Shown here: in pieces, positions 30-42,507 of the stretch
How the letters are laid out: each line of letters opens with the position of its first letter
Position numbering within the stretch: position 1 is the first letter of the stretch
From: Escherichia phage glasur
Length of the DNA: 42,507 nucleotides
Sequence record: MN850583.1
Reading direction: 5' to 3' (one strand)
The notes under the pieces: model-generated
What the model was told of the DNA's origin: nothing
Seen by the model: the letters and a program-made list of their open reading frames with translations, nothing else
Database searches by the model: none
Translations under genes and position numbers: made by a program

Positions 30-128
30 AATGATTACAGTAACTTATAACCTATCTGATAACGGTATCTATCTTATGCAATAACCTATTCAATCAAATA
101 TTTATTCTCAATGATTACAGTAACTTAT
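30..128. repeat. Two copies of a 19-nt direct repeat AATGATTACAGTAACTTAT (30-48 and 110-128) in the AT-rich left terminal region
   Basis: Read directly from the sequence; the copies are 80 bp apart and lie upstream of the early promoters. Confidence 0.7.
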
Positions 129-160
129 CCACTATTTGAGCTATTCAGTGAAAATAATTC

Positions 161-6824: not shown

Positions 6825-6970
6825 AGTTGATAAGCTGCAACCAAATAAACCTTTGGCTGTGCGTGATACAAAGTGGGAAGCCGAGAGTAAACTCGAAGAC
6901 CTTCAACGTATTATGCGGAATGTTATTCCAGCTTAGCCATCTACTCATGCCAGTTATTATTTAGCTGGCA

Positions 6971-6993
6971 TTATGAAGGTGACTATATTGGAC
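6971..6993 (+). promoter_or_regulatory. Phage-promoter-like element, variant copy (TTATGAAgGTGACTATAtTGgAc)
   Basis: 19/23 identical to the 20845-20867 element and contains GTGACTATA. Placed directly upstream of the first gene of the replication module. Confidence 0.5.
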
Positions 6994-7007
6994 AACCCGG
7001 AGGAAAT

Positions 7008-7208
7008 ATGTTTCGTGTATTAATGTTATTCGCACTTGTCGTTATATTGTGGGGCGCGTTATGGGTAGGTGTTGCCTATTTCATTCAGCCCTACATTGGC
7101 GAACAGCTTACCTCTGTAATTGGTACGCTGCTGGGCTTTGTTGTTGGCGCAGTTGGTATGACCAAGTGCATTGACATTGGCTGGAGTAAGGGGTGGGTGA
7201 AATGGTAA
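7008..7208 (+). CDS. Small membrane protein (66 aa, two predicted transmembrane helices)
   Basis: ORF track. GGAGG ribosome-binding site. Hydrophobic segments LMLFALVVILWGALWVGVAYFI and VIGTLLGFVVGAVGM. Confidence 0.65.
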   Translation: MFRVLMLFALVVILWGALWVGVAYFIQPYIGEQLTSVIGTLLGFVVGAVGMTKCIDIGWSKGWVKW

Positions 7209-7642
7209 AGCCAAAGTACAAAGTCGGTGATGAAATCGTGGGCGACGATGGCACTGGCACCCGGTCGGGTAAGCTGGGTATCATCGCATGGGTTAACCCT
7301 GACCGCCGAGCGTGGGAGCGCAGCGGGGAGACTCGTTACATCGTGAGCTGGATTGGTGAGCGCCTCAATGCGCAGCCGGATATCAGCCACTACAAATCTG
7401 ATTGGCTGGAGGACAACACCAGTCTGGTCAGCACGCCAGCAGAGAAGCGCGGTCGGTTCATGTGTCTGCTTGAGGGTGGCAGCACGCCGCCGAAGATTGA
7501 GCACATCACTGAACGTGAAGCGCGTGATGAAGCTGAGCGTCTGGCTGAGCGCCACGGTGGTACTGTCCGTGTGCTGCAAGTTGTAGCCAGCGTGAAGATG
7601 AAGAAGAAGATTCAGTACATACCGGACTGGGATAACGAATGA
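7202..7642 (+). CDS. Protein of unknown function (about 147 aa)
   Basis: Track ORF 7193..7642; the ATG at 7202 is preferred over the GTG at 7193. Confidence 0.65.
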   Translation: MVKPKYKVGDEIVGDDGTGTRSGKLGIIAWVNPDRRAWERSGETRYIVSWIGERLNAQPDISHYKSDWLEDNTSLVSTPAEKRGRFMCLLEGGSTPPKIEHITEREARDEAERLAERHGGTVRVLQVVASVKMKKKIQYIPDWDNE

Positions 7643-8349
7643 TGAAATCAGTGAGCAACGACGAGTGGCCGGAGCTGGCGAAGCGTCTGCCTGTAGGACA
7701 AAAGCGAAGGACGTTTCACAGTTGCTCGCGGTCATTCAACAAGACCAACTTCGAGTATGGCCGTGCGCCGGATTACATCTGGTGCAAGTGCCACCGCTGT
7801 GGGTACAGCCAGAAGCGTGACCTGACTCACGCTGTGTATGTGCCGCCAGCCGAGGTGCAGGTGAAGGTGCCGACTGATGTGGTGCCTATCACTGAGGTGA
7901 TTGCCAAGCAACCACGGCTGCTGCTGCCAGTGCTGGAGCGGGAGAACCTGATGCCACACCTGTCACTCCTGACTGCAAGCCCAACGTATGGCAGGCTGTA
8001 TCTGCCGGACGACACGGGCAGCTACTGTGGTCTGGACTACACGGGCAGGCAGTTCATCCCGTGGCGCTCGCCGCATAAGCATAGCTTGGCGATGAAGGTC
8101 AGTCCTCGTGGTGACGCGGAGACTAACTGCCTCTGGATTTATGGTGAGGTGGATGAGTATCTCCAGCAGGTGCGCGATGGTGGCAACTGTGCATTCGTTC
8201 CGAACGTGGATGATGCAACGTTGCAGGCTCTGGTCAGTGTGACGCTGGCGTATGGGTACAACCTCGTGGTCATCTGCCACCACCCAAGCGCCCAACGTAT
8301 CCGCAGGGAGCTGCGTATTGTGGGGCGTGTGCAAATCGTAGGAGAGTGA
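7639..8349 (+). CDS. Putative DNA primase (Cys-rich N-terminal zinc-binding region)
   Basis: Cysteine cluster HSCSRS...CKCHRC near the N-terminus and position immediately upstream of the helicase gene, as in phiKMV-like phages with separate primase and helicase. Assignment is mainly by position. Confidence 0.45.
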   Translation: MMKSVSNDEWPELAKRLPVGQKRRTFHSCSRSFNKTNFEYGRAPDYIWCKCHRCGYSQKRDLTHAVYVPPAEVQVKVPTDVVPITEVIAKQPRLLLPVLERENLMPHLSLLTASPTYGRLYLPDDTGSYCGLDYTGRQFIPWRSPHKHSLAMKVSPRGDAETNCLWIYGEVDEYLQQVRDGGNCAFVPNVDDATLQALVSVTLAYGYNLVVICHHPSAQRIRRELRIVGRVQIVGE

Positions 8350-8350
8350 T

Positions 8351-9616
8351 GTGCTTGACAAGCTGTTGTTAACGGTGATGCGCGAGCGCGGGAAGTTCAA
8401 CTCCCTGCGACACGCCATCCCGGAAGATACGATGAGCCAGACCACGAGCTATATGCTCAAGGCTTACGGCTCATACTTTGATGCGTTCCCGGACAGTGAC
8501 TACATTGACATTGACACGCTGGGTACACACGTTCGTTTAAAGACAGGCAGCACGCCTGAACAGATGGCAGCCTTTGATTCGTTGTGCTCGCAGCTTCGAG
8601 AGTACAAGCCAACGAAGGAACAGAAGGAAGGTGTGCTTGACCAGCTCGTCGAGTTGGATACCGCTGGCCGTGCTAACCTGCTAATGCAGAGGTACGACAA
8701 TGGTGAGGAACTGGATATTATCTATGAGCTGGGCCGTCTTGCTGAGGGCGCACGTCGCAGCCGGGGGCAGTCATCTGTCACTGATTACGTGGACGATGAT
8801 GTGGTTGATATTCTCAACCGGACGGATGATAATCACGGCCTCAAGTTCGGTCTGCTCTGCTTGCAAGACAGCGTTCGCGTACTTCTACCCGGCGACTCCG
8901 TTGCCATCGGTGCTCGACCTGACAGCGGAAAGACTTCCTTCATCGCGTTTAACCTTACGCGAATGGCGGCGACAGCAGCGAAGCTCTATCCGGGCAGGCC
9001 AATCCTCTGGTTCAACAACGAGGGGCAGGGCATCAACATCATCCCGCGCATCTACCAAGCGGCGCTCAACTGCACGCTCCCGGAACTGAAAGAGCTGGGA
9101 GAGGACAGGGCTAAGCTGCACGCTGCGTATGCCAAAGCGCTGGGTGCGCCAGCCAACATCATCCGTGTGAAGGATATGCACGGCGCGTCGCTGGCGAAAG
9201 CTGAGCAGGTTATCGAAGCGATGAACCCATGCGTTGTGGTGTGGGATATGTTGGCGAACTTCAAGCTGTCTGTCTCCGATGCCAACAGCAACAAGGCGTC
9301 GCAGGTTGAGCAGCTATGGCAGGAGGTACGTGAGCTGGCCGTGCGCCACGACTTCGTATCAATGGCCACGGTGCAGGTATCAGCCGATGGCAAGGATGAT
9401 ATGTTCCCTGCGCTGGATGCACTCAAGGATTCCAAGACTGGTATCCAAGGTGCGACTGATGTTATCGTCATGCTCGGCAGCGTGGATGACCCATCGCTGG
9501 CAGCGCGGCGCGGCGTCAGCACTCCGAAGAACAAACGCCAGATTGCTGGGCGTCCATCCAACGTGCGGTCGCAGGTTCACTTCTTTGCTGACCGCTGCCA
9601 ATTTGAGGATATGTAA
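8351..9616 (+). CDS. DnaB-like replicative DNA helicase (T7 gp4 helicase-domain type)
   Basis: Walker A GARPDSGKTSF and Walker-B-like VVVWDM; 421 aa. GTG start with GGAGAG upstream. Confidence 0.75.
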   Translation: MLDKLLLTVMRERGKFNSLRHAIPEDTMSQTTSYMLKAYGSYFDAFPDSDYIDIDTLGTHVRLKTGSTPEQMAAFDSLCSQLREYKPTKEQKEGVLDQLVELDTAGRANLLMQRYDNGEELDIIYELGRLAEGARRSRGQSSVTDYVDDDVVDILNRTDDNHGLKFGLLCLQDSVRVLLPGDSVAIGARPDSGKTSFIAFNLTRMAATAAKLYPGRPILWFNNEGQGINIIPRIYQAALNCTLPELKELGEDRAKLHAAYAKALGAPANIIRVKDMHGASLAKAEQVIEAMNPCVVVWDMLANFKLSVSDANSNKASQVEQLWQEVRELAVRHDFVSMATVQVSADGKDDMFPALDALKDSKTGIQGATDVIVMLGSVDDPSLAARRGVSTPKNKRQIAGRPSNVRSQVHFFADRCQFEDM

Positions 9617-9960
9617 TGAGCGTGATTAAGGTAGGCGACCGAGTTCGTAACTGTGACACCAAGAGCATACACCATGGCGCGACTGGTACTGTGGTTGATA
9701 TCGACAGCAAGTGTATCAGCATCAAGCGTGATGATGGCTCTCGCGGTTCCGGTATCTATGGCTCGTGGACTGCACGGCCTGAGTGCTGGGAGCTGCTGGT
9801 TGAGGTGCCGGAGCCGACGACCACCGATGAGGACTGGAGCTACGCTGAGGCTGAGCGTCTGTATCAGGCAGCGTGTGATGCCATGGCCAAGTACAATCAG
9901 TACGTTGAGCGTAAGCCTACGACCAGCTACCTGCCCGGCAGCAAGCCGAGTAAGTGGTGA
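9616..9960 (+). CDS. Protein of unknown function (114 aa), possible KOW/SH3-like N-terminus
   Basis: ORF track. N-terminal KVGDRVR...GATGTVVDID pattern. Confidence 0.6.
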   Translation: MSVIKVGDRVRNCDTKSIHHGATGTVVDIDSKCISIKRDDGSRGSGIYGSWTARPECWELLVEVPEPTTTDEDWSYAEAERLYQAACDAMAKYNQYVERKPTTSYLPGSKPSKW

Positions 9961-10124
9961 AGGGGCGCAGCTATCGCCGTTGCTCTTGCGGTGGGTGCCT
10001 GCTGGTTGAGCAGGTCAAGGGCAAAGCCACTGGCAAACCGCTGGTGATTTATGAATGTGAGAAGTGTGGAGCGAAGCAGTATGGAAGACAAGGTGTATCG
10101 AGCAGCACCCTTAACCCAGCGTGA
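9957..10124 (+). CDS. Possible zinc-ribbon mini-protein (about 55 aa; CSCGGC ... CEKC)
   Basis: GTG-initiated ORF below the track cutoff with two CxxC-type pairs. Overlaps the next ORF in another frame, so it is uncertain. Confidence 0.3.
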   Translation: MKGRSYRRCSCGGCLLVEQVKGKATGKPLVIYECEKCGAKQYGRQGVSSSTLNPA

Positions 10125-10272
10125 ACAAGACACCATCCGGGCGCAGTACCGGAAGGGTGATGCGTTCCGTGGTGAGGAAGCATTGGGTGAGCGTTACAAC
10201 GTGGCACCCGAAGATATCGTGGCTGTGGTTAACTTCACCTATCGTAAGGGGAAACAGAAGCATGATAAGTAA
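10081..10272 (+). CDS. Small protein of unknown function (63 aa)
   Basis: Internal ATG of track ORF 10051..10272 with GGAG about 10 nt upstream. Confidence 0.45.
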   Translation: MEDKVYRAAPLTQREQDTIRAQYRKGDAFRGEEALGERYNVAPEDIVAVVNFTYRKGKQKHDK

Positions 10273-10945
10273 TGCCGAAGCTAAGCGCGTGTGGGCAGAA
10301 GATATCTGCCGTCTGCTGCAATCCGAAGAACTGAACTTCGTGGTTGCCGGGGGAGGGGCAAGGGATACCGCGCTGGGTGTTGAGCCGAAGGACTACGACA
10401 TTGTAGTCTTTGGTTGGGGTGGTGATGTGAGCCGTGTGGCTGGCCGACTGGACTGGCTGGACTCCAGACTGGAGGACTACGCCAAGCAGAACGAGCTGGC
10501 GTATGAGTACATGCCGAGCTATCACGATGCAGCAGAGGGTGGCGACTTCGGCTCCCGTCTGTGGGGTGTGTATAAGATTGGCCCGGTCGATGTGATTATC
10601 AGTAAGTGCGGGTGCTGGTCGCAGGTACTGAACGAGTTCGACTTCAACCTGAACCAGTTCTACTTCCCGTCCAGCATCCCGCGTTACTCCGGCCAGTACA
10701 GCCGCGACCCCGGCGAGTTCATGGCGTACCCGTATGAGCCGAACCTGACTGCCGAAGATGTGCAGTGGTTCCCGGCGCTGGCCAGTCTGGTAGAAAGCTA
10801 CGATGACCTGCTGACTCTCCGTGTCTGCCGACCGGATGCCAGCCTGAGTCGTGTGGCCTACATGCTGGAGAAGCACGAGAAGTATCTGCCAGCCATTGAA
10901 GCATACGTTAATCGTATGCCCGACCACTTAGGTGGCAAAGCATAG
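10262..10945 (+). CDS. Nucleotidyltransferase with Pol-beta-type head domain of the CCA-adding/poly(A) polymerase class (227 aa)
   Basis: Motif FVVAGGGARDTALGVEPKDYDIVVFG matches the GGxxRDxxLGxxxxDxD signature of class II tRNA nucleotidyltransferases. ATG at 10262 with AAGGGGA upstream, inside track ORF 10121..10945. Confidence 0.6.
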   Translation: MISNAEAKRVWAEDICRLLQSEELNFVVAGGGARDTALGVEPKDYDIVVFGWGGDVSRVAGRLDWLDSRLEDYAKQNELAYEYMPSYHDAAEGGDFGSRLWGVYKIGPVDVIISKCGCWSQVLNEFDFNLNQFYFPSSIPRYSGQYSRDPGEFMAYPYEPNLTAEDVQWFPALASLVESYDDLLTLRVCRPDASLSRVAYMLEKHEKYLPAIEAYVNRMPDHLGGKA

Positions 10946-10955
10946 CGGGGGATTG

Positions 10956-13421
10956 ATGGCTATTCGAGCACAGATTATCGACGTTGAAACTGAGAACCAC
11001 GAGTGGTATGGGGAGCTGGCATCACCTCGCTGCCCTGACAACTACGTGGTGATGCAGGGACAGCGCGACTGTGTGCTGACCAAGGATGGCTGGGAGTTCT
11101 ACAAGCGTGAGGAATATCGGTACGCATCCCGTGAGGATTGGCTGGCGAACAAGAGCCTGCACCTCCACCCGGATACGAACATACTGGTTGCACACAACGC
11201 GCCGTATGAACTGAGCTGGTGGTTCGAGCATTACGGTGATGAGTTCAAGGCGTTCCTCTTACGAGGTGGCCGTGTATTCTGTACCGCGTATGCTGAGTAT
11301 CTGCTGACACACCAGCAATCCCAGTACCCATCCTTGAACGAGACAGCACCGAAGTATGGTGGTACTCACAAGGTGGATGCAGTCAAGGCAATGTGGGAGT
11401 CAGGTTATCTGACCAGCCAGATTGACGCTGAGCTGCTGAGCGAGTATCTGTCCGGGCCGTCCGGGGATATTGAGAACACGACCAAGCTGTTCGTTGGTCA
11501 GTGGGCAGAGCTGACGAAGCAGGGCATGTTGCAGATGGCACTGACCCGCTTCGAAGGTATGCTCATGTGGGCGTACATGATGCACTCCGGTCTACACGTT
11601 GACCGTGAGGTAGCAGAGCGTAACCGCCGTGAGTTGCAGGATTCAATCAGTGGGTTAACCGAGACACTGATGGGCTACCTGCCTGCCGACATGCCAAGTG
11701 AAGCGCGTGAGCAATTCAAGTTCACGTCTGCTTATCACATGAGCGCATTCGTGTTCGGCGGCGTGATGAAGTACAAGGCGCGAGTCGAGCGCCGGGATGG
11801 AGATGGCAATCTCATTTACGTGAAGGTGGATGCACCACTGTTCAAGCGTGGCAAGGACAAGTGGCTCAAGCATACCAGCGAGTGCGAGTGGGATGATGAG
11901 ACTGGGTTGTGGTATGACCCGGTTGAGAAGGTACACCAGACCATCTACTCCAGCGGGAAGAACAAGGGTGCGCCCAAGTTCGAGAAGTTGGCGACCGATG
12001 AGGTGGACACCAAGTGGGGTGAGGTACTGTTCCGGTTGCCCGGTCTGCTGCGTGTGCAGGACAGACGAGCGCGGGAGATTGCCGACAACCTTGAATGGGA
12101 AGACCCGAAGCGTCCGGGTGAATATCTCCGGCGCACTGGTGACTGGGTAGGTAAGCGCAAGCTGGCTGACGGTTCTCCTGTATTCAGTACGGCGGGTGAG
12201 GTGCTGGACATTCTGGCAGCTCGTAAGATTCCCGGCGTCGTGGAGATTGCTGACCGGGCCAAGGCGCAGAAAGACCTCGGCACCTACTACCTCAGCGAGA
12301 CGTTTGATGATGAGGGCAACGTGACTGGCCAGTCGGGGATGATGCAGTTCATCCAGCCGGACAGCATCGTACACCACACCATCAACATGACCGCGACTGA
12401 GACGACGCGATTGTCATCTCAGCGACCGAACAGCCAGAACCTGCCACGTAAAGGTACGAGTAAAGTTAAGCAGATGTTCACCTCTCGCTTTGGCGAAGGT
12501 GGCCGCATCGTTGAGGCTGACTACTCGGCACTGGAAGTGGTGGGGCTGGCCGGGTTCAGTAAGGACAAGAACCTGATTCGTGCATTGCTCGATGGTATCG
12601 ACATGCACTGTATGCGATTGTCTGCTCAACTCAATGAGCCATACGAGGACGTGCTTAAGAAGTGCAAGGATGAATCCCATCCTGACCATGCACGATACAG
12701 TCAGATGCGTACTGACATTAAGCCCAAGGCGTTCTCCTATCAGTATGGTGCAACAGCGCGAGGCATTGCCTACTCGACTGGTTGCTCGGAGGAAGAAGCA
12801 CAGGCGTTCATCGACAACGAGAAGGGTCTGTTCCCGGAAGTTGAAGAATGGTTCGACGCTGTAATCTTCCCCGCCGTTGAGCGTAGTGGACAGAGCAACG
12901 TGTTCAAGGAACAAGATGAGAACGGACGGTGGCAGGTGTATCGCCGTGGTCACTTCCGCTCGCCGGGTGGAACTTGTTATTCATTCCGTCAGTATGAGAA
13001 ATGGAACAAGGCGGCGCGTGCTTATCTGATGGAATACAAACCAACCCAAATGCGTAACTATCCTATTCAGGGTGAGACAGCGTTTTGGGTGCAGGGAATT
13101 GGTGGGCTGCTGTTCCGCTGGCTGCTGGCCAATGACTTCTTTGGTGGGCGTGTGGTTCCCATCAACCAAGTGCATGACGCATTCTATTTCGACGTGGCAC
13201 CTGACTGTCCTCACGAGTTCTTCGTTGGACTCAAGGCAATCATGGAATCCATCCCGGAATATTACAACCACATCTGGCCTGAATATAACCTGACAGTTCC
13301 GTTTCCGGCAGAGGTAGAAGCTGGGCCAAGCATGTACGAAAAGCATCACGTAGAGACGACAGCCGAAGAAGTGCTGGAGTTCAAACGTAACTTCCTGACG
13401 AGTAAGGGTATTAGCATATGA
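10956..13421 (+). CDS. Family A DNA polymerase (T7 gp5-like) with 3'-5' exonuclease domain
   Basis: Exo I motif IIDVETEN, polymerase motif A DYSALEVVG, motif B KAFSYQYGATARG and motif C VHDAFYFD. The ATG at 10956 is preferred; the track's GTG at 10932 is possible. Confidence 0.92.
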   Translation: MAIRAQIIDVETENHEWYGELASPRCPDNYVVMQGQRDCVLTKDGWEFYKREEYRYASREDWLANKSLHLHPDTNILVAHNAPYELSWWFEHYGDEFKAFLLRGGRVFCTAYAEYLLTHQQSQYPSLNETAPKYGGTHKVDAVKAMWESGYLTSQIDAELLSEYLSGPSGDIENTTKLFVGQWAELTKQGMLQMALTRFEGMLMWAYMMHSGLHVDREVAERNRRELQDSISGLTETLMGYLPADMPSEAREQFKFTSAYHMSAFVFGGVMKYKARVERRDGDGNLIYVKVDAPLFKRGKDKWLKHTSECEWDDETGLWYDPVEKVHQTIYSSGKNKGAPKFEKLATDEVDTKWGEVLFRLPGLLRVQDRRAREIADNLEWEDPKRPGEYLRRTGDWVGKRKLADGSPVFSTAGEVLDILAARKIPGVVEIADRAKAQKDLGTYYLSETFDDEGNVTGQSGMMQFIQPDSIVHHTINMTATETTRLSSQRPNSQNLPRKGTSKVKQMFTSRFGEGGRIVEADYSALEVVGLAGFSKDKNLIRALLDGIDMHCMRLSAQLNEPYEDVLKKCKDESHPDHARYSQMRTDIKPKAFSYQYGATARGIAYSTGCSEEEAQAFIDNEKGLFPEVEEWFDAVIFPAVERSGQSNVFKEQDENGRWQVYRRGHFRSPGGTCYSFRQYEKWNKAARAYLMEYKPTQMRNYPIQGETAFWVQGIGGLLFRWLLANDFFGGRVVPINQVHDAFYFDVAPDCPHEFFVGLKAIMESIPEYYNHIWPEYNLTVPFPAEVEAGPSMYEKHHVETTAEEVLEFKRNFLTSKGISI

Positions 13422-14305
13422 CCGCATCAGTATTGAACCGCATGAACTCCATCGTCGAACAGTATGTTGACGAGGAAGAACTTGACTTTAACGAAGCCAC
13501 GTCTGGTGGTGGTAAGCTCCTGCCGGAAGGTAAGGCGCTGGCCCGTCTGGTTGGCTACGTTGAGGTGGGGCCGCACGCCACTAAGCAGGCACCGGACAAA
13601 CCGCCAGTCAACAAGTTCTTCCTCCAGTTCGCACTGTGGGGCAAGGCCAAGAACGGCGAGACTTACCACGAAGTTGTCAATGGTAAGATGGTGCCGGGCA
13701 AAGTTCGCACGCAGTTCATCGCTGTGAAGAAAGACCTGAACAGTAAGTCCGGCGCTTACAAACTGTTCAAGCGCATGAACCCGGACAAGACTGCGAAGCA
13801 CTTCGCGCAGTTGCTGAACCATACCTTCATCGTTCCGATTACCCACAACGAATCTGGTGAGGGTGAGAACAAGAAGGTGTATGCGAACATCGACCTTGAG
13901 AACATCATGCTCGCTGTTGACCCGGTAACTGACCAGCCGTACCCGGTGCCGGAAGTCGAAGACGAGACGCTGTTCAAGCTGTTCCTGTGGAACCGTCCGA
14001 CCAAGGAAGACTGGGAATCGCTGTACATCGACGGCAAGAACGACGATGGCAAATCCAAGAACTGGATTCAGGACAAGCTGCTTGAGTCTCCTGAGTTCCC
14101 CGGCTCACCTCTTGACCTGCTGCTCAATGGCGCTGGCGCTGGCTCTGCCATCGCTGAGCTGCCGGAGCTGGGCGATGTAGGCCAGCCGGAGGAAGTGAAG
14201 GAAGTTAAGCAGGAAGTCGCTGAGCTTCCGGTGAAGGGTGAAGCCGACAGCAAGAAAGAGCCGGACGTGACTGGCGAAGCTGACTTCGGTTTGCCTAGCC
14301 TGTAA
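13418..14305 (+). CDS. Protein of unknown function with acidic low-complexity C-terminus (295 aa); possible ssDNA-binding protein
   Basis: ORF track. Start overlaps the DNA polymerase stop (ATGA). Acidic tail with EADF near the C-terminus is reminiscent of T7 gp2.5; this is speculative. Confidence 0.6.
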   Translation: MTASVLNRMNSIVEQYVDEEELDFNEATSGGGKLLPEGKALARLVGYVEVGPHATKQAPDKPPVNKFFLQFALWGKAKNGETYHEVVNGKMVPGKVRTQFIAVKKDLNSKSGAYKLFKRMNPDKTAKHFAQLLNHTFIVPITHNESGEGENKKVYANIDLENIMLAVDPVTDQPYPVPEVEDETLFKLFLWNRPTKEDWESLYIDGKNDDGKSKNWIQDKLLESPEFPGSPLDLLLNGAGAGSAIAELPELGDVGQPEEVKEVKQEVAELPVKGEADSKKEPDVTGEADFGLPSL

Positions 14306-14341
14306 GACTGGTGGCCACAGGGACGTGGCCGGAGGACAACG

Positions 14342-15316
14342 ATGAGTAGACTTCAACGCTTACTCCACAATGCAGAGGAACTTGATGACCAGTTTGATGG
14401 TTACGTGTCTGGTCGTATCTTGCTGTGCGATGCTGACTCCACGGTCTACGTCGCGGCAGCAACCACGAAGAACATCGAGACAGCGAAGACACGATTCTGT
14501 TCCGGGGTACTGACCGCCAAGTTCCTCGCCAATGCTCAGTCAGTTCGTATCGAGTTGACCGCTGCGGAGTGTACGAAAGCTGGACGGTACAAGCTGCGTG
14601 GGGCCAAGCTGTACCAAGGCAACCGAGACAAAGACCGCAAGCCCGGTCTGGTCGAGCCGTTGCGTAAAGCAATTGGCCGGAACATGTTCAACGTCCCGGA
14701 TGGTGAGGACTGGTACGTCCACCTGAACTTTGAGTTCGAGGCAGACGATACCTTAATCATGGATGCGTGGACGATTGGCATTAATGATGCAGTAATCTAC
14801 AGCGCGGATAAAGACCTGCGTTGTTGGCCGGGCAGATTCCTTGACCCGTATGACAACAAGGTGCTGGAGCCGTGCGTTGGTATTGGCAGGCTGTGGTGGC
14901 ATGAAACGAAAAGCGACAAGTCGCTGGTCGGCCACGGGCCTATCTTCTTTTGGGCACAGATGTTGATGGGCGACACCGCCGACAACATCGCTGGCGTGAA
15001 GAAGGTTGGGAAGCAGACTGCTTATGATATGCTGGTTGATTATCAAGAGATTGATGATGAATCAGTGGTTGCGGAATTGGTGCTGCGTGAATACATGCAG
15101 CGTGACCAGAACCCGTGGCCGGAGGCAGTGGCGCTGTGGCTGTACCGCACGCCGACCTACTCATTCGCAGCCCACTTGAACACGCTGACCTTGAGCAAGG
15201 AGCTGCGTGTCTGGCTGCATAATAAACTGGGTGAGGAATGGTATGCGGAAAGTGACTGGCGCGACTCTGTTGCAGCTACGGAAGAATGCGATGGGTTGCA
15301 ACTGCCCACTCTGTGA
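14342..15316 (+). CDS. 5'-3' exonuclease (FEN/T7 gp6-like)
   Basis: H3TH-type motif GDTADNIAGVKKVG and acidic clusters. Good GGAGGA ribosome-binding site. Confidence 0.85.
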   Translation: MSRLQRLLHNAEELDDQFDGYVSGRILLCDADSTVYVAAATTKNIETAKTRFCSGVLTAKFLANAQSVRIELTAAECTKAGRYKLRGAKLYQGNRDKDRKPGLVEPLRKAIGRNMFNVPDGEDWYVHLNFEFEADDTLIMDAWTIGINDAVIYSADKDLRCWPGRFLDPYDNKVLEPCVGIGRLWWHETKSDKSLVGHGPIFFWAQMLMGDTADNIAGVKKVGKQTAYDMLVDYQEIDDESVVAELVLREYMQRDQNPWPEAVALWLYRTPTYSFAAHLNTLTLSKELRVWLHNKLGEEWYAESDWRDSVAATEECDGLQLPTL

Positions 15317-15623
15317 TGAGCCGATGGTTGACCTCAAGCTCATGGTGGTTGACCACGACCATGTGACTGGGGAGATTCGCGGTGTCATCTGCCGCTGGTG
15401 TAATGCTCAGCTCGGTAAGGTGGAGAACTCTGCCAACCGAGCGAAGCGCCAGCGCACAGTGGATGACTGGTTGGATAGCGCCATCGAGTGGCGACGTAAG
15501 CAGCACACTGGTCTGATGTATCCGACACATAAGACAGAGGCTGAGAAGAAAGCGGCGGCAGCCGATAGACGTAAAAAGGCAGCAGCAGCTAAAGCGCGTG
15601 CCGTAATCACTAAGGGGAAATGA
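15243..15623 (+). CDS. Endonuclease VII-type Holliday junction resolvase
   Basis: CNCPLCDEP...DHDHVTGEIRGVICRWCN zinc-binding catalytic signature of the T4 endonuclease VII family. The ATG at 15243 (GAGGAA upstream) is preferred over the track's GTG at 15207 and overlaps the exonuclease gene end. Confidence 0.7.
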   Translation: MRKVTGATLLQLRKNAMGCNCPLCDEPMVDLKLMVVDHDHVTGEIRGVICRWCNAQLGKVENSANRAKRQRTVDDWLDSAIEWRRKQHTGLMYPTHKTEAEKKAAAADRRKKAAAAKARAVITKGK

Positions 15624-16747
15624 TGACGAAGTTAAGTAACGCACAGCTCAAGGCAGATATCGCTGAGGGTCTTGGCACCACTGAGATTGCTGAGAAGCAT
15701 GACATGACCACTGGTGCTATTCGATACCGAAAGCGCCAGCTTGCCAAGAGCGGCTGGAGTCCTGAGCACGACATGACCAAGGAAGTGCCGGAGCCATACG
15801 CGGTTAAGGGTACGTCCACGCTGTACGATAAGGACGGCAACGTGGTCATGCAGTGGGTGAAGACTGCGCTCGACCGTGAGCAGGAGCTGGCCCTGCTGCA
15901 AGAAGCTGTGGATGCAATCAGCGAAACCATTACCCCGGAAGTGGCCCGGCCATTCAACGGCGGCCCGGCACCTGCTGAGCTGCTGAACCTGTTCATCCTC
16001 ACTGACTACCACCTCGGTATGCTGGCGTGGTCGGAGGAAACTGGTGATGACTGGGATATGAAGATTGCCGAAGACCTGCTGGTCAAGTGGTTCGCGGCAG
16101 CCATTGCCAGTGCGCCGCCAGCGCAGGTTGCTATCTTCGGACAGCTCGGTGACTTCCTGCACTGGGATGGGTTGGATGCAGTGACACCATCGAGTGGGCA
16201 TGTGCTGGATGCAGACACGCGATTCCAGAAGCTGGTGCGTGTGGCTATCCGGGCGCAGCGCCGTATCATCTCCATGCTGTTGGAGAAGTTCCCGCAGGTT
16301 CACGTAGTGTGTGCCGAGGGCAACCACGATATGGCCAGCTCAATCTGGATGCGCGAGCTGCTGCACGTACTGTACGCCGACGAGCCGCGTGTCACTGTTG
16401 ACCGCAGCCCTGACCCGTACTACTGCTATGAGCATGGCGAGACGGCACTGTTCTTCCACCATGGTCACAAGCGTAAGGCTGAGCAACTGGAGACTGTACT
16501 GGTTGCGAAGTTCCGCGAAGTGTATGGCCGAACCAAACATGCGTATGCACACGTTGGCCACCTGCATCACAAGAAGGTGCTGGAGTCTGCCGTCATGATT
16601 GTCGAGCAGCACCAGACGCTGGCAGCTAAGGATGCCTATGCTTCTCGTGGTGGCTGGCTGAGCGAGCGCAGCGCGAGCGTGATTACTTATCATGCCCGGT
16701 ACGGTGAGGTCGCACGATTCACCATTAGCCCGGAGATGTTGGAGTGA
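15620..16747 (+). CDS. Calcineurin-like metallophosphoesterase (putative DNA exonuclease) with N-terminal helix-turn-helix
   Basis: Metallophosphoesterase motifs ILTDYHLG (DxH), GQLGDF (GD), AEGNHD (GNHD), FFHHGH and VGHLHH. N-terminal LGTTEIAEKHDMTTGAIRYRKRQL resembles a helix-turn-helix. Confidence 0.7.
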   Translation: MMTKLSNAQLKADIAEGLGTTEIAEKHDMTTGAIRYRKRQLAKSGWSPEHDMTKEVPEPYAVKGTSTLYDKDGNVVMQWVKTALDREQELALLQEAVDAISETITPEVARPFNGGPAPAELLNLFILTDYHLGMLAWSEETGDDWDMKIAEDLLVKWFAAAIASAPPAQVAIFGQLGDFLHWDGLDAVTPSSGHVLDADTRFQKLVRVAIRAQRRIISMLLEKFPQVHVVCAEGNHDMASSIWMRELLHVLYADEPRVTVDRSPDPYYCYEHGETALFFHHGHKRKAEQLETVLVAKFREVYGRTKHAYAHVGHLHHKKVLESAVMIVEQHQTLAAKDAYASRGGWLSERSASVITYHARYGEVARFTISPEMLE

Positions 16748-16968
16748 GTAGGACACTGTATGAAGACAGTGTAGTGGAGCTTAAGTCTGATGGCCTCTCG
16801 ATTGACTGGGAGGCCCGGACGCAGGTTCAGCTATACGACGATGGCACCGTCTGCATTTCACAGGACGGCGATGAGGTATGGCTCCCATGGGCCTATGTCA
16901 AAGATATCATCTTTGCTTTGGAGGAAGCGCACGATGCACATGAAAGACACCGTAGTAGTAGACCTTGA
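16744..16968 (+). CDS. Protein of unknown function (74 aa)
   Basis: Track ORF with GTG start overlapping the upstream stop. No internal Met; overlaps the next gene by about 35 nt. Confidence 0.4.
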   Translation: MSRTLYEDSVVELKSDGLSIDWEARTQVQLYDDGTVCISQDGDEVWLPWAYVKDIIFALEEAHDAHERHRSSRP

Positions 16969-17437
16969 CGGCACGCTGGCTGATGGCCGTTGGCGTCTGC
17001 ACCTGCTGCCTCCACCGGAGCGCAGGCATCTGGATGAAGCGTGGGCCGAGTTCAACTTGGCTGGCGCTGACGACCCAGCGTTTCAGGACACGATTGATAT
17101 TGTGAACGCACTGGCCCTCACGTATCGCATTATCATTCTGACCGGACGCGGGGCCGTGGCCCGTGAAGTAACCGAGCAGTGGCTCGACGATAATGGTGTG
17201 GTGTACGACAAGCTCATCATGCGTGAGATTGGCGACTGCCGCAAAGACACTGAGATGAAGCGTGCAGCGCTGGAAGACATTGGCATTGAGAACATCGTCT
17301 GTGCCTTTGATGACCTGCCGCACATCGTGGACTTTATGCGCAGCCTCGGCATCACAGTGTACGAAGTAACCCGGTATGAAGACAACCATGAGTATGTCCA
17401 TGCCAATGCAAAATACGATGGGGATAAAGATGAGTAA
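16934..17437 (+). CDS. HAD-superfamily phosphatase-like protein (167 aa)
   Basis: N-terminal VVVDLDGTLADG carries the HAD motif I DxDGT. ATG at 16934 with GGAGGAA upstream, inside track ORF 16790..17437. Confidence 0.55.
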   Translation: MHMKDTVVVDLDGTLADGRWRLHLLPPPERRHLDEAWAEFNLAGADDPAFQDTIDIVNALALTYRIIILTGRGAVAREVTEQWLDDNGVVYDKLIMREIGDCRKDTEMKRAALEDIGIENIVCAFDDLPHIVDFMRSLGITVYEVTRYEDNHEYVHANAKYDGDKDE

Positions 17438-17966
17438 ACGTGGCGACCACTTCTGCCTGTGCATCGAGCGCGACTACAAAGACGCGCTGCTTAATGAGCT
17501 GCGCGATGCTGGTGTAGTGCTGACATACGACGAGCCTTACGATGTGCCGAACGACAGTCGTGATTACTACACCTGCGTATACAATGGCAGTACCAAAGTG
17601 CTGGTGCTTGAACCATTCGAAGTGCAGGCCGTGGAGAAATCATTCATCCCGGTAGAGCCGGAAGCTGGGCCGGGCGGTATGAAGTATGACGGCGGTAAGC
17701 CACGCATGGCCCTGCTGCTCGACGGCTGCCCGAATGCACTGGAGGCTGTGGCCAGCGTGCTGACCTTCGGCGCTCAGAAGTACGCAGCTCACTCATGGCA
17801 GACTGTGCCGGAAGGTGAGGAACGTTACAAGTCAGCGCTGCTCCGGCACCTGACTGCGGTGGGTAAGGGTGAGGAACTCGACCCGGAATCTGGCCTGCAC
17901 CATCTGGCGCACGCTGCTTGCAATGCACTGTTCATTCTCGAACTGGCTTTAAGGAAAACTAAATGA
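17430..17966 (+). CDS. Putative MazG-like nucleotide pyrophosphohydrolase domain protein (178 aa)
   Basis: C-terminal half (KYDGGKPR...VLTFGAQKY...RYKSALLRHL...ESGLHHLAHAACNALFILE) resembles, from memory, the phage dATP/dGTP diphosphohydrolase (MazG-like) domain. N-terminal half is of unknown type. Confidence 0.45.
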   Translation: MSKRGDHFCLCIERDYKDALLNELRDAGVVLTYDEPYDVPNDSRDYYTCVYNGSTKVLVLEPFEVQAVEKSFIPVEPEAGPGGMKYDGGKPRMALLLDGCPNALEAVASVLTFGAQKYAAHSWQTVPEGEERYKSALLRHLTAVGKGEELDPESGLHHLAHAACNALFILELALRKTK

Positions 17967-18142
17967 CTGCTTTACTTTACGTGATTGCTCTGGCATGGTT
18001 TGTATACTTCACGCTGGCCTGCGTGAGCGCCTGTAAATCGTACAACCTAAGCCACTACCCGGAACGCGCTGGGTCTGCTGGCTTCGTGGTGTGGGTGCTG
18101 CTGGCTGTACTGCCAACGTGGTTCATTTGTTACTTGGCATAG
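17963..18142 (+). CDS. Small membrane protein (59 aa, two predicted transmembrane helices)
   Basis: Below the track cutoff. ATG with AAGGAAA upstream. Hydrophobic LLYVIALAWFVYFTLACV and FVVWVLLAVLPTWFICYLA. Confidence 0.5.
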   Translation: MTALLYVIALAWFVYFTLACVSACKSYNLSHYPERAGSAGFVVWVLLAVLPTWFICYLA

Positions 18143-18147
18143 GAGAT

Positions 18148-18384
18148 ATGATGAGCAGATACCAACGAGCCATTGAGGACACCGTGGTTGAGAAAGGTGT
18201 GTGCGGGGCGTGCCACGGCTGTGGCACATTCACCAGCATGACCATTCGACACGAGCTTGTCCAAACTGAATGTGAAGCCTGTGGTGGCACGGGCGTGACT
18301 GACCCGGCACTGCAACGCTCAGTGCTGCGGGAACAAGGTATGCGCTGCCAAGTGCAGCCGGGCTATGACCAACCAACGGAGTAA
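18148..18384 (+). CDS. Small zinc-finger protein with two DnaJ-type CxxCxGxG repeats (78 aa)
   Basis: CGACHGCG and CEACGGTG motifs. ATG with TAGGAGAT upstream, inside track ORF 18091..18384. Sits immediately upstream of the RNA polymerase gene. Confidence 0.6.
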   Translation: MMSRYQRAIEDTVVEKGVCGACHGCGTFTSMTIRHELVQTECEACGGTGVTDPALQRSVLREQGMRCQVQPGYDQPTE

Positions 18385-20819
18385 TGATGGACTTACTTGC
18401 TGAGCAGATTCGACTGGAAGAAGAAGCGCGAGCCAGACACCGCGAGGGCTGGCTGGATAATATCAGAGAGGCGTTGGCCGCTGGCCGGGCTGGTTCAGTA
18501 CCATTGCTCCAGCGTATGATGGTTGAGGCGTATCCTCAAGTTGAAGCTGCGATGCAAGAACTCCTGAATGAAACTGCCCGTGGTTATGGTGCGCAGTACC
18601 GGACATACATGCGTGAGCTGGGGCCGCGTGCCTGCGCCTCACTCGCATTGAGCATGGCTGTGTCTGGTGCTGCTGCTGAGCAGGCAGTGCTTAACTTGCT
18701 CAAGGATATGGGCAAGGCTCTGATGGCTGAGGTAGTGTACCTTCGGGCCAAGGCAGCCGGGCCTGTGCAGGCTGCTTACATGGCCAAGGTTAAGACTGAC
18801 GTTAAGCGCTCACGTTCCAAGTCAGCTAACCATGTGTACAACAAGGCGAAAGCGTCGGCGGCTAACGTTGGCGTTGAGCTGGATATCCTGCCGCAGCGTG
18901 CGCTCATCACCATTGGTAAGATGATGATGAAGTGCATTGAGCCTACTGGTCTGCTGGTCACTATGCGCGTTGGCGGCAACCACCGTCAGCGTGGCACTGC
19001 GCACTTCGCACTGCATGAAGATGTGCTGGCAACGATGAAAGATTGGATGGACTTGCCACGGGCAGACGGCCTGTGCTGTCCTCCAATGATTATCCCGCCA
19101 GCGCAGATTGCACGCGATGGTCGTAGCGGTATGTGGCACTCTCCGGGGCAGGCGGCCATGTACCGGGCAATCAGTCGCATGAATCACCGAGGCTATCGTG
19201 CGCTGGGTGTTGACCCACTGCCCATCATAGAGCCGTGTATGATGCTCAGCAGCGTTCCGTACCGAGTTAACCCAATGGTACTGGAGTTCCTGAGAACGAA
19301 CCGTACAGGCGTTATGGGGCTGCCTGTGCCACCGCGTGAGCCTAAGCTCCCGTTCACTATCCCGGCAGGCGTCAGCTTCGCACAGTACATTAGCAAGTTC
19401 CCACCCGAAATGCAGCAGCAGATGGAGTCGGAAGCGCACGAGTACAAGGTGAAGACCCGTCTGTATTACAACGAGCTGCGCAAGTTCACGTCACAGATGC
19501 TGGCGCTGAACGGTGCAGTCAAAGAGGCCGAGCGCTATGCGCCATACGATAGGGTATATCTCCCGACTTACGCCGATACGCGGGGCCGAATTTATTATTC
19601 TTCGACCCTTAACCCTCAGTCCATCGACGCGGTGCGAGCGCTGCTCGAACTTGCTGAACCAGTGGCTCTCGGAAGTGAGGGGCTGTTCTGGCTCAAGGTA
19701 CATGTTGCGAATTGTTTTGGATACGACGCCACAGACTTCGACGACCGGGCAGCGTGGACGGACAAAACACTCCCCAGACTACGTGAGGCGTGCCGTCTTC
19801 CAGAGGCATTTGATTCGTTCTGGTCAGAAGCCGATAGCCCTATCTCAGCGTGGGCTGCTGCTGTTGAACTCATTCGAGCTATCGACTCAGGAAGTCCTGA
19901 GACTTATCCCTGCCGAGTGGTTACGCAGTGGGACGCTACATGTTCAGGACTCCAGCACCTCAGTGCGATGCTACGAGATGAGGTTGGCGGTGCTGCTGTC
20001 AATCTTGTCGATAGCGTGGGAAGAAAAGCAGACATATATCTCAAGACGGCAGCAGCGGCGATGCAGGCTCTTGAAGAAAGTGAAGCGGCTGCGCCGACGA
20101 CAATGGGTTCGTGGCTTGTTTCCATCGGCATTGTTCGGGCTATGGCCAAGAAGCCAGTGATGACCTACGTGTATGGGGCAACCCGGCACGGCATGGTTGA
20201 TTACTACTGCCTGTACCTGCGCGAGAACCGGGTCAAGCTGCCGGAGGGCAAGAGCCTGCTGGAGTGTGCTCAGTTCATTGCTGAGTTTATGTGGGCTGCT
20301 ATCCCTCGCGTCGTGCCGAAAGCTGCTGAGCTTATGGCATGGTTGCAGGCTATCGCAGTAGAGGCTGCGAGCATGGGTGAGTACGTGGAGTTCACTGCGC
20401 CGTCAGGTCTGCGTGTGGTCAATCTGTATCAGGCCAGCAAAGAGATTGCGCTGAACAACATCAACCTCATGGGTATCCACGGCATCAAGCTGCGCGAGTA
20501 TCTGGATAAGCCAGACGGTCGCAAGTGTGCCGCTGCGATTGCTCCGAATTTTGTACACGCTATGGATGCCAGTCACATGATGAAGGTTCTGTGGGAGATG
20601 TGGAATAACGGGGTATACATGGTATCCATCCACGACTCGTTCGGTGTAGCGGCAGCTCATGCCGGGCTACTGCACAAGGTCATACGTGAAAAGTTTGTGC
20701 AGATGTATGAGGAATGCGACCCTATTCAGCAACTTGCGTCAGCATATAACCGTGAAGCTCCAGCTCGCGGTAATCTGGACATCCAGCTTGTGAAGAAATC
20801 AAGCAAGTTCTTCTGCTGA
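18384..20819 (+). CDS. Single-subunit DNA-dependent RNA polymerase (T7 RNAP family)
   Basis: 811 aa. [29 protein letters not shown] matches the T7 RNAP [20 protein letters not shown] region, and VSIHDSFG matches catalytic motif C. Located at the end of the DNA metabolism module. Confidence 0.93.
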   Translation: [811 protein letters not shown]

Positions 20820-20844
20820 TTAAAGCATTGTATTCCTTGCTTAT

Positions 20845-20867
20845 TTATGAAAGTGACTATAGTGATA
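20845..20867 (+). promoter_or_regulatory. Phage RNAP promoter-like element TTATGAAAGTGACTATAGTGATA (reference copy)
   Basis: 16/23 identical to the T7 promoter TAATACGACTCACTATAGGGAGA in the same register, including ACTATAG at -7 to +1. Lies between the RNA polymerase gene and the structural module. Predicted +1 is the G at 20862. Confidence 0.6.
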
Positions 20868-20926
20868 GAATCACGCTACCGGTAGCCCCGTCAGTGGCGG
20901 GGGTGCTGCCACTCAGAGAGGATTGT

Positions 20927-21112
20927 ATGGGTAAAGAATCTCCATTAGATAGAGTAACATTCACTAAAGCTCAGTTAGCTCTACTGGAAAAGCACTTCGG
21001 TACATGGGTACAGGTAGGCAGAACAGTAACACCTGACACTAACCTTCCTCTCATTAACAGAGAAGCTGGTAAGCAGGATGTACTGGACTTCATCCGTGAA
21101 AGAGTGATTTGA
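20927..21112 (+). CDS. Small protein of unknown function (61 aa) with atypical AT-rich codon usage; moron-like
   Basis: ATG at 20927 with GAGAGGA upstream, inside track ORF 20828..21112. Uses AGA Arg and TTA Leu codons and is visibly more AT-rich than neighbouring genes. Flanked by copies of the promoter-like element. Confidence 0.55.
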   Translation: MGKESPLDRVTFTKAQLALLEKHFGTWVQVGRTVTPDTNLPLINREAGKQDVLDFIRERVI

Positions 21113-21134
21113 AATGAAAGTGACTATTATGGGA
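21112..21134 (+). promoter_or_regulatory. Phage-promoter-like element, divergent copy (aaATGAAAGTGACTATtaTGggA) overlapping the start codon of the next gene
   Basis: 14-nt core ATGAAAGTGACTAT is identical to the reference copy, but -1 and +1 differ (T and A instead of A and G), so function is doubtful. Confidence 0.3.
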
Positions 21135-21533
21135 AATACAACGCACACGACTATGCCTCTTGACATTCGGCGTGCGGTGGCCGAGGGCATACAAGCCGAG
21201 CGGCCTTGGTCAGACCTATCTCCCGATGTGATAGTCGAACGCATGTACGAGGCTACTGCCGCTGGTTGCGTTGACGTTTACATTACTGCTGACGACGATG
21301 GCCTCATGGCCGTTGCTCACATCGGCAGGTTATTCGATATTCATGTGGGCGAGATGGTGGTCGTTATGGCCTCATACGTCTGGCCCCAGTACAGAAACCG
21401 TGGAGTGATGCGTGCCATCCTCCGTGTACTCAAAGACGTGGCCCGTTCCGAGGGTGTACGTTGGTGCGGTTACTCCCACATGGTGCGGCCTTACGTTCAG
21501 GAGTACCGCTTCATAGATTTGGAGAAACCGTAA
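21114..21533 (+). CDS. Protein of unknown function (139 aa); weak GNAT-acetyltransferase-like motif
   Basis: ORF track. QYRNRGVMRAIL loosely resembles the acetyl-CoA-binding motif A. Start codon lies inside the promoter-like repeat, so the start is uncertain. Confidence 0.55.
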   Translation: MKVTIMGNTTHTTMPLDIRRAVAEGIQAERPWSDLSPDVIVERMYEATAAGCVDVYITADDDGLMAVAHIGRLFDIHVGEMVVVMASYVWPQYRNRGVMRAILRVLKDVARSEGVRWCGYSHMVRPYVQEYRFIDLEKP

Positions 21534-25624: not shown

Positions 25625-25634
25625 TGGCAAACTC

Positions 25635-25658
25635 GAAGCCCTTCTCACGAGGGGCTTC
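25635..25658 (+). terminator. Hairpin downstream of the major capsid gene (stem GAAGCCC/GGGCTTC, loop TTCTCACGAG); putative late terminator or processing site
   Basis: 7-bp GC-rich stem directly after the capsid stop codon, the position of T-phi in T7. Downstream CTATGATTG is only weakly U-rich. Confidence 0.45.
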
Positions 25659-25680
25659 TATGATTGTCACTGGAGGTTTT

Positions 25681-41916: not shown

Positions 41917-41999
41917 GGGTATCCGAAAGCTGACACAATGAACAGGCCGTGGGTGCAATACCCCGGCTTGAAAATTGAACGTTTATGCGTGGGCCTCCC

Positions 42000-42507
42000 T
42001 CGACCCAAATGACCGCGCGTACCCCCATGACGTGTGCGCGGATTAGCCTCGCGACGTGCGCGATATTGCTCGCGTGCGCTGCGCGGCGCGTCAAGAGGAT
42101 TGCCTGCGTGCGGTATAGCTCGTGCGTGTCGCGTTTCATCGTCTGCCGTGTGGCGTGCTGTGCGCTGTCCTGCTGGCTGTGCTGTGCGGTGCTGTCCTAT
42201 GGGGACGCTCTGCGCTGGCTGTGCTGTGCTGTGTGCTGCGCTCGGTCGTGCGGGTATCTGTCTCTTTTCGTCGTGCGCCGTGGTGCTGTGTGGTGGTGTG
42301 GTGTAGCGGTGGTGCTGCCGTGGTGCTGTCCTGTCTGCTGGTCTACTGTCTGCGCCGCCAGCTCTGCGCGTCATGCTCTGCTACTGTGTCACCTGTCCTA
42401 CTGCGTTCACTGGCTGCCGCCTGTCATCCTGTCGGATTCCATCCGTTGCCGTTCCGCGCTCGCTTGTTTCGGCTGCGCCGCGCTCGCTCTGCGTATCTAG
42501 CGATACA
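42000..42507. repeat. GC-rich, strongly strand-skewed (A-depleted) right terminal region with short degenerate GTGCTGT/GCTGTCC repeats
   Basis: About 6 A residues in roughly 230 nt (42130-42360) on the + strand. Recurring GGCTGTGCTGTGC and GTGCTGTCC units. Only Cys/Arg-rich ORFs with no ribosome-binding site. Confidence 0.6.
42255..42270 (+). promoter_or_regulatory. Candidate T7-RNAP class II pause/termination (concatemer-junction-like) motif TATCTGTCTCTTTTCG
   Basis: Resembles the T7 class II signal ATCTGTT followed by a U-rich tract, with one mismatch. In T7 this signal lies in the terminal repeat. Confidence 0.35.

Follow-up and report, generated by a model that had tools for sequence, protein, structure and literature searches.

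Five putative promoters for the phage's own RNA polymerase in Escherichia phage glasur and their concerted change with the polymerase specificity loop

Introduction

The genome of Escherichia phage glasur (sequence record MN850583.1; 42,507 nucleotides, analysed as a whole and hereafter referred to as the window) carries a short element that stands ahead of its replication module and recurs behind the gene for a single-subunit RNA polymerase (RNAP). Two questions arise from this locus: which protein reads the element, and whether the RNAP gene is expressed from a promoter that its own product recognizes. A first-pass annotation of the sequence had described three forward copies of a T7-type promoter in a genome with phiKMV-like placement of the RNAP gene, and had suggested a positive feedback loop. 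The repeated element is real and is present in five copies instead of three. These five sites are very probably the cognate promoters of the phage's own RNAP, a reading suggested by the concerted change of their core sequence with the specificity loop of the enzyme in related phages.

Five copies of the element in the window

The reference copy, TTATGAAAGTGACTATAGTGATA, lies on the plus strand at 20845-20867 (site C), in the gap after the RNAP gene, and begins 26 nt past the stop codon that ends the RNAP gene at 20819. Site A, at positions 1-23 on the minus strand, repeats this 23-mer exactly in inverted orientation; it points leftward from the left end, away from all genes, and is positioned between the inferred direct terminal repeat (DTR) and the early sigma70 promoters. 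Site B (6971-6993, plus strand) reads TTATGAAGGTGACTATATTGGAC, also given as ATGAAGGTGACTATATTGGAC, and marks the boundary between the early genes and the replication module. Site D (21112-21134, plus strand; AAATGAAAGTGACTATTATGGGA) takes in the stop/start junction together with codons 1-6 (MKVTIM) of a gene for a GNAT acetyltransferase. The divergent site E (34237-34259, plus strand; ATGAGAGTGACTACTAAGGAA), which came to light via the Pantoea phage LIMEzero and syntenic comparison, lies in frame within the internal-virion-protein gene at 32106-35213 (codons M712-R-V-T-T-K-E), 5′ of the tailspike, terminase and lysis genes.

The 14-mer ATGAARGTGACTAT occurs exactly four times in the window and in none of 100 shuffled sequences. 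With one mismatch allowed, the 19-nt degenerate consensus ATGARRGTGACTAYWDWGR has exactly five matches, with none in shuffles, and the octamer GTGACTAT is found nowhere else in the window on either strand. All three forward copies of the first-pass annotation (6971, 20845 and 21112) are thus retained, while sites A and E had been overlooked; its expectation that more divergent copies may exist is borne out by site E. The concern that a mismatch-tolerant scan might return many coding-region matches has likewise been answered, since the consensus finds five sites only.

Several further candidates were considered and discarded. Near-matches at 4747, 5218, 16940 and 33474 are within chance expectation, and the one at 33474 was rejected as a promoter and taken as a negative control: its GTGACC is kept whatever the lineage, with no covariation. 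The ATG within the motif was set aside as the start of a minus-strand open reading frame (ORF) at site A, only 12-16 codons following sites B and C, and a coding role for this ATG in general was set aside because coding cannot account for the concerted changes described below.

The window represents a complete Bonnellvirus genome; it matches about 20 records of this genus and is 97.6% identical to Escherichia phage forsur in the RNAP region. All of its long ORFs are on the plus strand. Mapping of the forsur and J8-65 annotations onto the window revealed that early genes are followed by primase, helicase, DNA polymerase and nucleases and then by the RNAP gene, after which come a 61-aa gene, the GNAT gene, genes for portal, scaffold, capsid, tail and internal virion proteins, and finally the tailspike, terminase and lysis genes. 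The RNAP gene (18384-20819, plus strand) ends the DNA-metabolism module and separates it from the structural genes, which agrees with the phiKMV-like placement noted earlier. Equally correct were the statements that the reference copy sits just 3′ of the RNAP gene and ahead of the structural genes, and that the copy at 6971 precedes the replication module including the RNAP gene. The genes 3′ of site B are those for a small membrane protein, primase, helicase, DNA polymerase and so on up to the RNAP, and site C is followed by a conserved hairpin in the 5′ untranslated region and then by the 61-aa gene, the GNAT gene and the structural genes.

Concerted change of the promoter core and the RNAP specificity loop

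The RNAP gene encodes 811 aa with a PF00940 domain (282.6 bits). Its product belongs to the T7 RNAP family: it matches T7 RNAP at E=3e-57, and the equivalents of D537, K631, Y639, H811 and D812 are conserved in the phmmer alignment. RNAP residues 686-706 (KEIALNNINLMGIHGIKLREY; codons at 20439-20501, plus strand) align with the T7 specificity loop (T7 ~741-760), and the window equivalents of T7 R746, N748, R756 and Q758 are N, N, K and R, respectively.

Only 21 records contain an RNAP that is at least 60% identical to that of the window. We compared 11 full genomes of relatives, five RNAP-region fragments and three IMG/VR contig fragments; concerted change was assessed per record, at whichever sites that record covers (20 genomes or contigs). 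The core GTGACTAT is shared by the window, forsur, ROV85 and RZ4. All five sites carry GCTACTAT in usur and Kc261, and all five carry GTGTCTAT in megetsur and altidsur. The latter core is also present at sites C and D of aldrigsur, mellemsur, LF82-23, HHU8, BHUENT7 and one IMG/VR contig, these five further genomes and the contig being covered over the stretch from the RNAP gene to sites C and D only. J8-65 and smaasur share GTAACTGT, and further variants were identified in Lidtsur, two IMG/VR contigs and LIMEzero.

The specificity loop varies along with the core. It reads KEIALNNINLMGIHGIKLREY in the window class, KESPM-HLHLMGVHQIKLREY in the usur class, KETMLNNINLMGIHSIKLREY in the megetsur class and KETTM-GIKLMGVHAIKLREY in the J8-65 class, and other types occur in Lidtsur, LIMEzero and the two novel contigs. 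In the 20 genomes or contigs, the eight types of loop match eight types of promoter, and no exception was seen. The RNAPs of the window and usur are 90% identical, and the substitutions between them are densest in the loop (9/20 residues).

Within genomes, the copies change together. Ten full-length Bonnellvirus genomes contain exactly four copies each of their own 9-10-mer core, at sites A-D, syntenic and in the same orientation; J8-65 has three exact core copies and one that is off by a single base, and LIMEzero has five copies. Every full-length Bonnellvirus genome examined has a conserved, covarying site A, and in a 150-nt alignment around it the window and usur differ at four positions, two of which are the core changes. 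Site B is conserved and covaries like the other sites, hence it is probably functional.

The two coding-embedded sites follow the same pattern at the protein level. The codons at site D track the promoter class (MKVTIM, MKATTM and MKVSTM), as do the residues at site E (MRVTTK in the window, MRATTK in usur and Kc261, MRVSTK in megetsur and altidsur). The flanking protein is 98-99% identical at both sites while the encoded residues switch among VT, AT and VS; in usur, the change at site E is the sole amino-acid change in a 100-aa stretch. In the two IMG/VR contigs with new classes, the start of the GNAT gene is that contig's own promoter sequence.

A scan of the proteome (54 ORFs) for columns that are invariant inside each of three promoter classes yet distinguish all three from one another identified only seven. 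Six of them are in the RNAP (residues 125, 138, 688, 689, 700 and 805), three within the loop, and the seventh is a single column in a small early protein. Taken together with the pairing of loops and cores, this covariation makes it very probable that the first-pass annotation was right to regard the element as a promoter of the phage RNAP.

Two side observations concern the enzyme and its relatives. RNAP columns 125, 138 and 805 (nt ~18756, 18795 and 20796) lie outside the loop and may mark further promoter contacts; the first two belong to the N-terminal domain, which aligns poorly, and the third is close to the C terminus. The two contigs with new classes, UViG_3300030930_000003 and UViG_2228664000_000004, come from uncultivated relatives whose RNAPs are 71% and 78% identical to that of the window; their sites C and D read ATGAACATCCGTACTA(C/A)GGAG and ATGAA(A/G)ACTACTAT, and their specificity loops KEMRVGLNLMGVHRVQIQEP and KDTIMKLQLMGIHGIKVREY, respectively.

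Resemblance to the T7 promoter and position of the start

The label of a T7-type promoter fared less well. The first-pass annotation had counted 16 of 23 positions shared with the T7 promoter, and the best actual value against the T7 23-mer TAATACGACTCACTATAGGGAGA is 15/23, for the reference copy at 20845; the copies at 6971 and 21112 reach 11/23 and 13/23. Matches of at least 15/23 occur on average 2.3 times per simulated genome of the same composition, with at least one in 93% of simulations, so that this resemblance has no statistical weight. A search of the window for the T7 consensus with up to three mismatches yielded no match. The ACTATAG core that had been described as shared is confined to the 20845 copy and its inverted counterpart; the sequence is ACTATAT in the 6971 copy and ACTATTA in the 21112 copy, and the base after CACTATA is G at sites A and C, T at site B and A at sites D and E. 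The RNAP gene lies after the replication genes and 3′ of site B, and site A is on the minus strand. The site set as a whole resembles not that of T7 but that of the phiKMV-like phages LUZ19, KP34 and LIMEzero.

These results bear on where transcription begins. In the T7 register, +1 would fall at 20862, 6988, 21129 and 34254 (sites C, B, D and E), and in a register 2 nt downstream at 20864, 6990, 21131 and 34256. What stands at the T7-register +1 differs among these sites (G, T, A and A), whereas the G two bases 3′ is invariant in the five window sites and in most relatives. Read from this G, the sites begin with GATA (C), GGAC (B), GGGA (D) and GGAA (E), and in LIMEzero CACTAA is followed by GGAG and, at site C, CACTAT by GATA. 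The true start may accordingly lie 2 nt past the T7-register +1, with a G everywhere, and the sequences place +1 within a 3-nt interval, 15 to 17 nt after the A of the motif ATG. The earlier proposal that the +1 base differs (T versus A) and may set promoter strength assumes the T7 register; with the invariant G sitting 2 nt further on, it finds no support here.

The zone that the T7 specificity loop reads in its promoter includes positions -10 to -8. The covarying bases of the window element stand at -8, -7 and -6 in the T7 register, and at -10, -9 and -8 with the start 2 nt downstream. For comparison, the KP34 start lies 14 nt after the A of its ATG, at a G (PMC6834552), and that of CD23823, as read here, 16 nt after the A. 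The +1 position is not transferable from CD23823, KP34 or LUZ19 because their RNAPs are only ~30% identical to that of the window.

Alternative explanations

One alternative is that the element is a true T7-family promoter, related to TAATACGACTCACTATAG by descent or convergence and used in the T7 register, with its strength tuned by the base that follows ACTATA. This would account for the ACTATAG of two copies and for the 15/23 identity, and it would fit an RNAP that is a T7-family enzyme; the ACTATTA of site D is, moreover, the core of the A-initiating T7 promoter phi2.5. This identity is nevertheless of the kind expected about twice per genome by chance, the supposed +1 base varies next to an invariant G, the downstream register brings the covarying bases into the zone that the T7 loop reads, and the upstream TATG is common to the promoters of KP34, LUZ19 and CD23823 but not to that of T7. 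We consider such a promoter rather unlikely. A second alternative concerns the reader itself: the element might bind another sequence-specific phage protein, such as a regulator, a replication initiator or a packaging factor. Concerted change demonstrates only a common reader, and origins or packaging signals could sit where site A does, near the genome end and beside direct repeats at 30-59 and 110-139. Against this stand the concentration of six of the seven class-discriminating columns in the RNAP, the clustering of substitutions in the counterpart of the promoter-reading loop of T7 RNAP, the orientation of four of the five sites with the genes, and the coincidence of site positions with experimentally mapped RNAP promoters of LUZ19 and KP34, so that a different reader appears highly improbable.

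It could also be argued that only the intergenic sites A, B and C are promoters and that D and E are similar through coding constraints or chance. Both lie within ORFs, their 3′ halves depart from the consensus (ACTATTATGG and ACTACTAAGG), and site E is degenerate in J8-65 and smaasur. Yet D and E follow the class-specific core at an amino-acid cost in proteins that are locally almost invariant, LIMEzero and the two IMG/VR contigs begin the GNAT gene with their own, quite different promoter sequence, and the second mapped LUZ19 promoter also lies within coding sequence (gp27). A set restricted to A, B and C therefore has little to recommend it in our view.

The interpretation of the five sites as promoters of the phage RNAP has its own weak points, to which the degenerate site E of J8-65 and smaasur and the heterogeneous copies of Lidtsur belong. 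For this phage and for all Bonnellvirus the evidence for promoter function is comparative; covariation establishes a shared trans-acting reader, and that this reader is the RNAP is argued from the association scan and by analogy, the nearest RNAPs with experimentally defined promoters (CD23823, KP34 and LUZ19) being as distant as stated above. The start is ambiguous, and a T in the T7 register would be a poor initiating base at site B. Finally, read-through from site B to the RNAP gene is assumed, as T7-type terminators for the phage RNAP are not reliably predictable.

Proposed transcription programme and feedback

In the programme that we propose, host RNAP would start at three strong sigma70-like early promoters on the plus strand (263-294, 400-431 and 478-510), which consist of TTGACA, a spacer and TGCTGTAAT or TGATGTAAT (repeat family D19), and would transcribe the early genes up to a hairpin at 6947-6971. 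A simple scan of the window for sigma70 and terminator consensus sequences returned fewer sites than shuffles, was uninformative for the stretch from site B to the RNAP gene and missed these early promoters at 263-510. The hairpin (plus strand; 10-bp stem ATGCCAGTTA / TAGCTGGCAT) directly abuts site B. Its structure is maintained in megetsur and altidsur, where CCAG/CTGG became CCTG/CAGG by a compensatory change, and survives complete sequence turnover in J8-65, smaasur and Lidtsur; in Bonnellvirus it is without a U-rich tail, and LIMEzero annotates a terminator at this place. The hairpin is probably where early host-RNAP transcripts end or are processed.

Some read-through of this hairpin would reach the RNAP gene at 18384 and give the first phage RNAP, which would then initiate at all five sites. 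Site B would drive the replication module including the RNAP gene and thereby amplify RNAP synthesis. A terminator-like hairpin with a T tail was sought between site B and the RNAP gene and no convincing one was identified, which makes autogenous expression of the RNAP a reasonable inference; we lean slightly towards positive feedback through site B. A published model for phage LUZ100 likewise has host read-through followed by positive feedback (PMC10134795). The small gene directly 5′ of the RNAP gene (18091-18384, plus strand) matches PHROG 6060, 'anti-termination protein Q-like' (E=2.9e-13), and carries the same name in the records of J8-65, Lidtsur and LIMEzero; its product could affect how host RNAP gets to the RNAP gene.

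Site C would drive the small 61-aa gene, the Rac-like GNAT gene and the structural genes. The GNAT gene (21114-21533, plus strand) encodes 139 aa and scores 22.5 bits with PF00583, for which the cut-off is 20.7; the LIMEzero counterpart appears in PMC7552054 as a Rac homologue. Site D would add structural-gene transcripts that lack the GNAT start codon; because its predicted start lies past the GNAT ATG, only transcripts from site C could encode this protein. Site E would boost the tailspike, terminase and lysis genes. Two hairpins on the plus strand were observed along the late region. The leader 3′ of promoter C contains a conserved GC-rich hairpin at 20868-20920 (GCTACCGGTAGC CCCGTCAGTGGCGGGG), identical across lineages whose promoter flanks differ, and a hairpin at 25629-25660 (AAGCCCCTTCTCACGAGGGGCTT) follows right after the major capsid gene, where LIMEzero has an annotated terminator; the latter is probably an attenuator of late transcription.

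Site A and the genome ends

Site A would fire leftward over the non-coding left end and the terminal repeat and, on concatemers, antisense into the right end of the preceding genome. The DTR is placed at ~41995-42250 by homology to the annotated DTR of J8-65, and leftward from site A comes a stretch with only 2-7% A on the plus strand, followed by the inferred repeat. P001, the antisense LUZ19 promoter equivalent to site A, was active by experiment and gave transcripts that extend to the right end of the genome, and a block of read-through into the early genes has been suggested by the authors (PMC10914365). After this example, such a block is our leading guess for site A, held with low confidence, as would be any other specific role.

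Other features of the genome ends were noted in passing. A direct repeat AATGATTACAGTAACTTAT (30-59 and 110-139, plus strand; 87% identity over 30 nt) lies between promoter A and the early promoters and could be an operator or an origin element. At the right end, the plus strand contains 2-7% A over ~400 bases (42100-42500). Inside this A-depleted and otherwise variable region, GGGTATCTGTCTCTTTTCG (42253-42271, plus strand; a TATCTGTCTCTTTT signal) is conserved in all relatives. It lies close to where the terminal repeat is inferred to end on the right, and its J8-65 equivalent CTATCTATCTTTTTT begins 11 nt past the annotated DTR. The sequence resembles the T7 class II or concatemer-junction pause signal TATCTGTT, which in T7 is also located at the edge of the repeat. 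An ORF at 41985-42500, over whose equivalent forsur annotates a 'hypothetical protein', is probably not a gene because it spans the inferred terminal repeat and the skewed non-coding stretch.

Implications

As a set, the sites are already known in kind from phiKMV-like phages, and the series of loop and promoter variants together with the coding-embedded promoters is the most interesting by-product of this analysis. Some RNAP pairs of different class are ~90% identical overall and only 3-9 loop residues and 1-2 promoter bases apart. The chances seem to us evenly balanced that at least eight classes of RNAP-promoter specificity form a natural, graded series in the Bonnellvirus/Waewaevirus clade, each switch having occurred at all five promoters at once, two of them coding-embedded, and having forced replacements in the Rac-like acetyltransferase and the internal virion protein. 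If the classes are truly discriminating, they would include minimal natural specificity switches and ready-made orthogonal RNAP-promoter pairs, and would provide a clear case of a regulatory code that constrains protein sequence. The matched loop and promoter variants would be natural starting points for the study and engineering of RNAP specificity.

Among the literature searched, papers on the genus Bonnellvirus make no mention of promoters, and the present sites offer a probable transcription map for this genus. Site B, in addition, makes the idea of an autocatalytic RNAP testable in a phage of E. coli K-12.

Comparison with known systems

T7 has the same enzyme family and a ~20-bp promoter read by a beta-hairpin specificity loop; as in the window, this promoter is AT-rich at its upstream end and has a TATA-like stretch ahead of the start. 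Natural promoter-specificity switches in this family go with few loop substitutions, for example at N748 in T7 versus T3. T7 differs in having 17 promoters, all rightward, as opposed to five with one leftward, and its gene 1 is transcribed by host RNAP only, whereas the RNAP gene of the window lies late and 3′ of a putative promoter of its own. A phage-specific promoter upstream of the RNAP gene is known from LUZ100 (phi1; Putzeys et al., 2023, PMC10134795), where it stands directly before this gene and is tied to a MarR-like repressor and lysogeny; site B, by contrast, is 11.4 kb away from the RNAP gene, upstream of the entire replication module, and the genome looks strictly lytic.

The motif sequence of the window is specific to the Bonnellvirus/Waewaevirus clade. 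LIMEzero (Waewaevirus, NC_015585), with an RNAP 70% identical to that of the window, has an annotated 'putative phage specific promoter' at 7294-7313, after a terminator (site B), and at 20330-20349 (site C). Its motif AAGGCAAKCACTAWGG aligns gap-free to the window ARGTGACTAYWDWGR although the core sequence differs. In addition to the two copies annotated in this record, we identified three more (consensus AAGGCAAGCACTAAGG), equivalent to sites A, D and E: an antisense copy towards the left end at 652 (minus strand), one at 20741-20761 with which the Rac homologue ORF36 begins, and one at 33867-33887 inside ORF45.

In the Klebsiella phage KP34, three strong promoter copies were verified in vitro (Lu et al., 2019, PMC6834552): one close to the left end (475-490), one immediately behind the RNAP gene and one among the structural genes (33721). 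The strong promoter T(A/G)ATGTTACAGGAGTA shares the upstream (A/T)ATG with the window and differs in its core. KP34 further differs in its start, which is 14 nt after the A of the ATG compared with the predicted 15-17 nt, and in an unrelated weak promoter inside the RNAP gene, and the two RNAPs are ~31% identical.

The layout is matched by that of LUZ19 (Putzeys et al., 2024, PMC10914365), for which ONT-cappable-seq mapped a pair of promoters behind the RNAP gene, a single one among the structural genes and another that fires antisense at the left end. In both phages the RNAP gene ends the replication module and only four or five copies of a ~20-bp motif are present. One copy directly follows the RNAP gene (site C in the window, 21118 in LUZ19) and a second lies a few hundred nucleotides on, in coding sequence near the GNAT/Rac gene (21315, inside gp27, in LUZ19). 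Another is in the structural region (site E; compare LUZ19 P009 and KP34 33721-33736), and an opposite-strand copy stands between the terminal repeat and the host early promoters (site A, ahead of 263-510; 748 on the minus strand in LUZ19). No phage promoter comparable to site B, ahead of the replication module and the RNAP gene, has been reported for LUZ19, and the LUZ19 sites are experimentally mapped whereas those of the window are derived from sequence comparison. Both motifs start with TATG, and the rest of the LUZ19 motif (GgtTATGTCACacACAnnGG) is unrelated; only this upstream TATG is common to the window, LUZ19 and KP34, so the resemblance is architectural and not one of motif sequence. 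The LUZ19 layout thus holds in enterobacterial phages despite ~32% RNAP identity and an unrelated promoter sequence, and its preservation suggests that the layout itself is functional.

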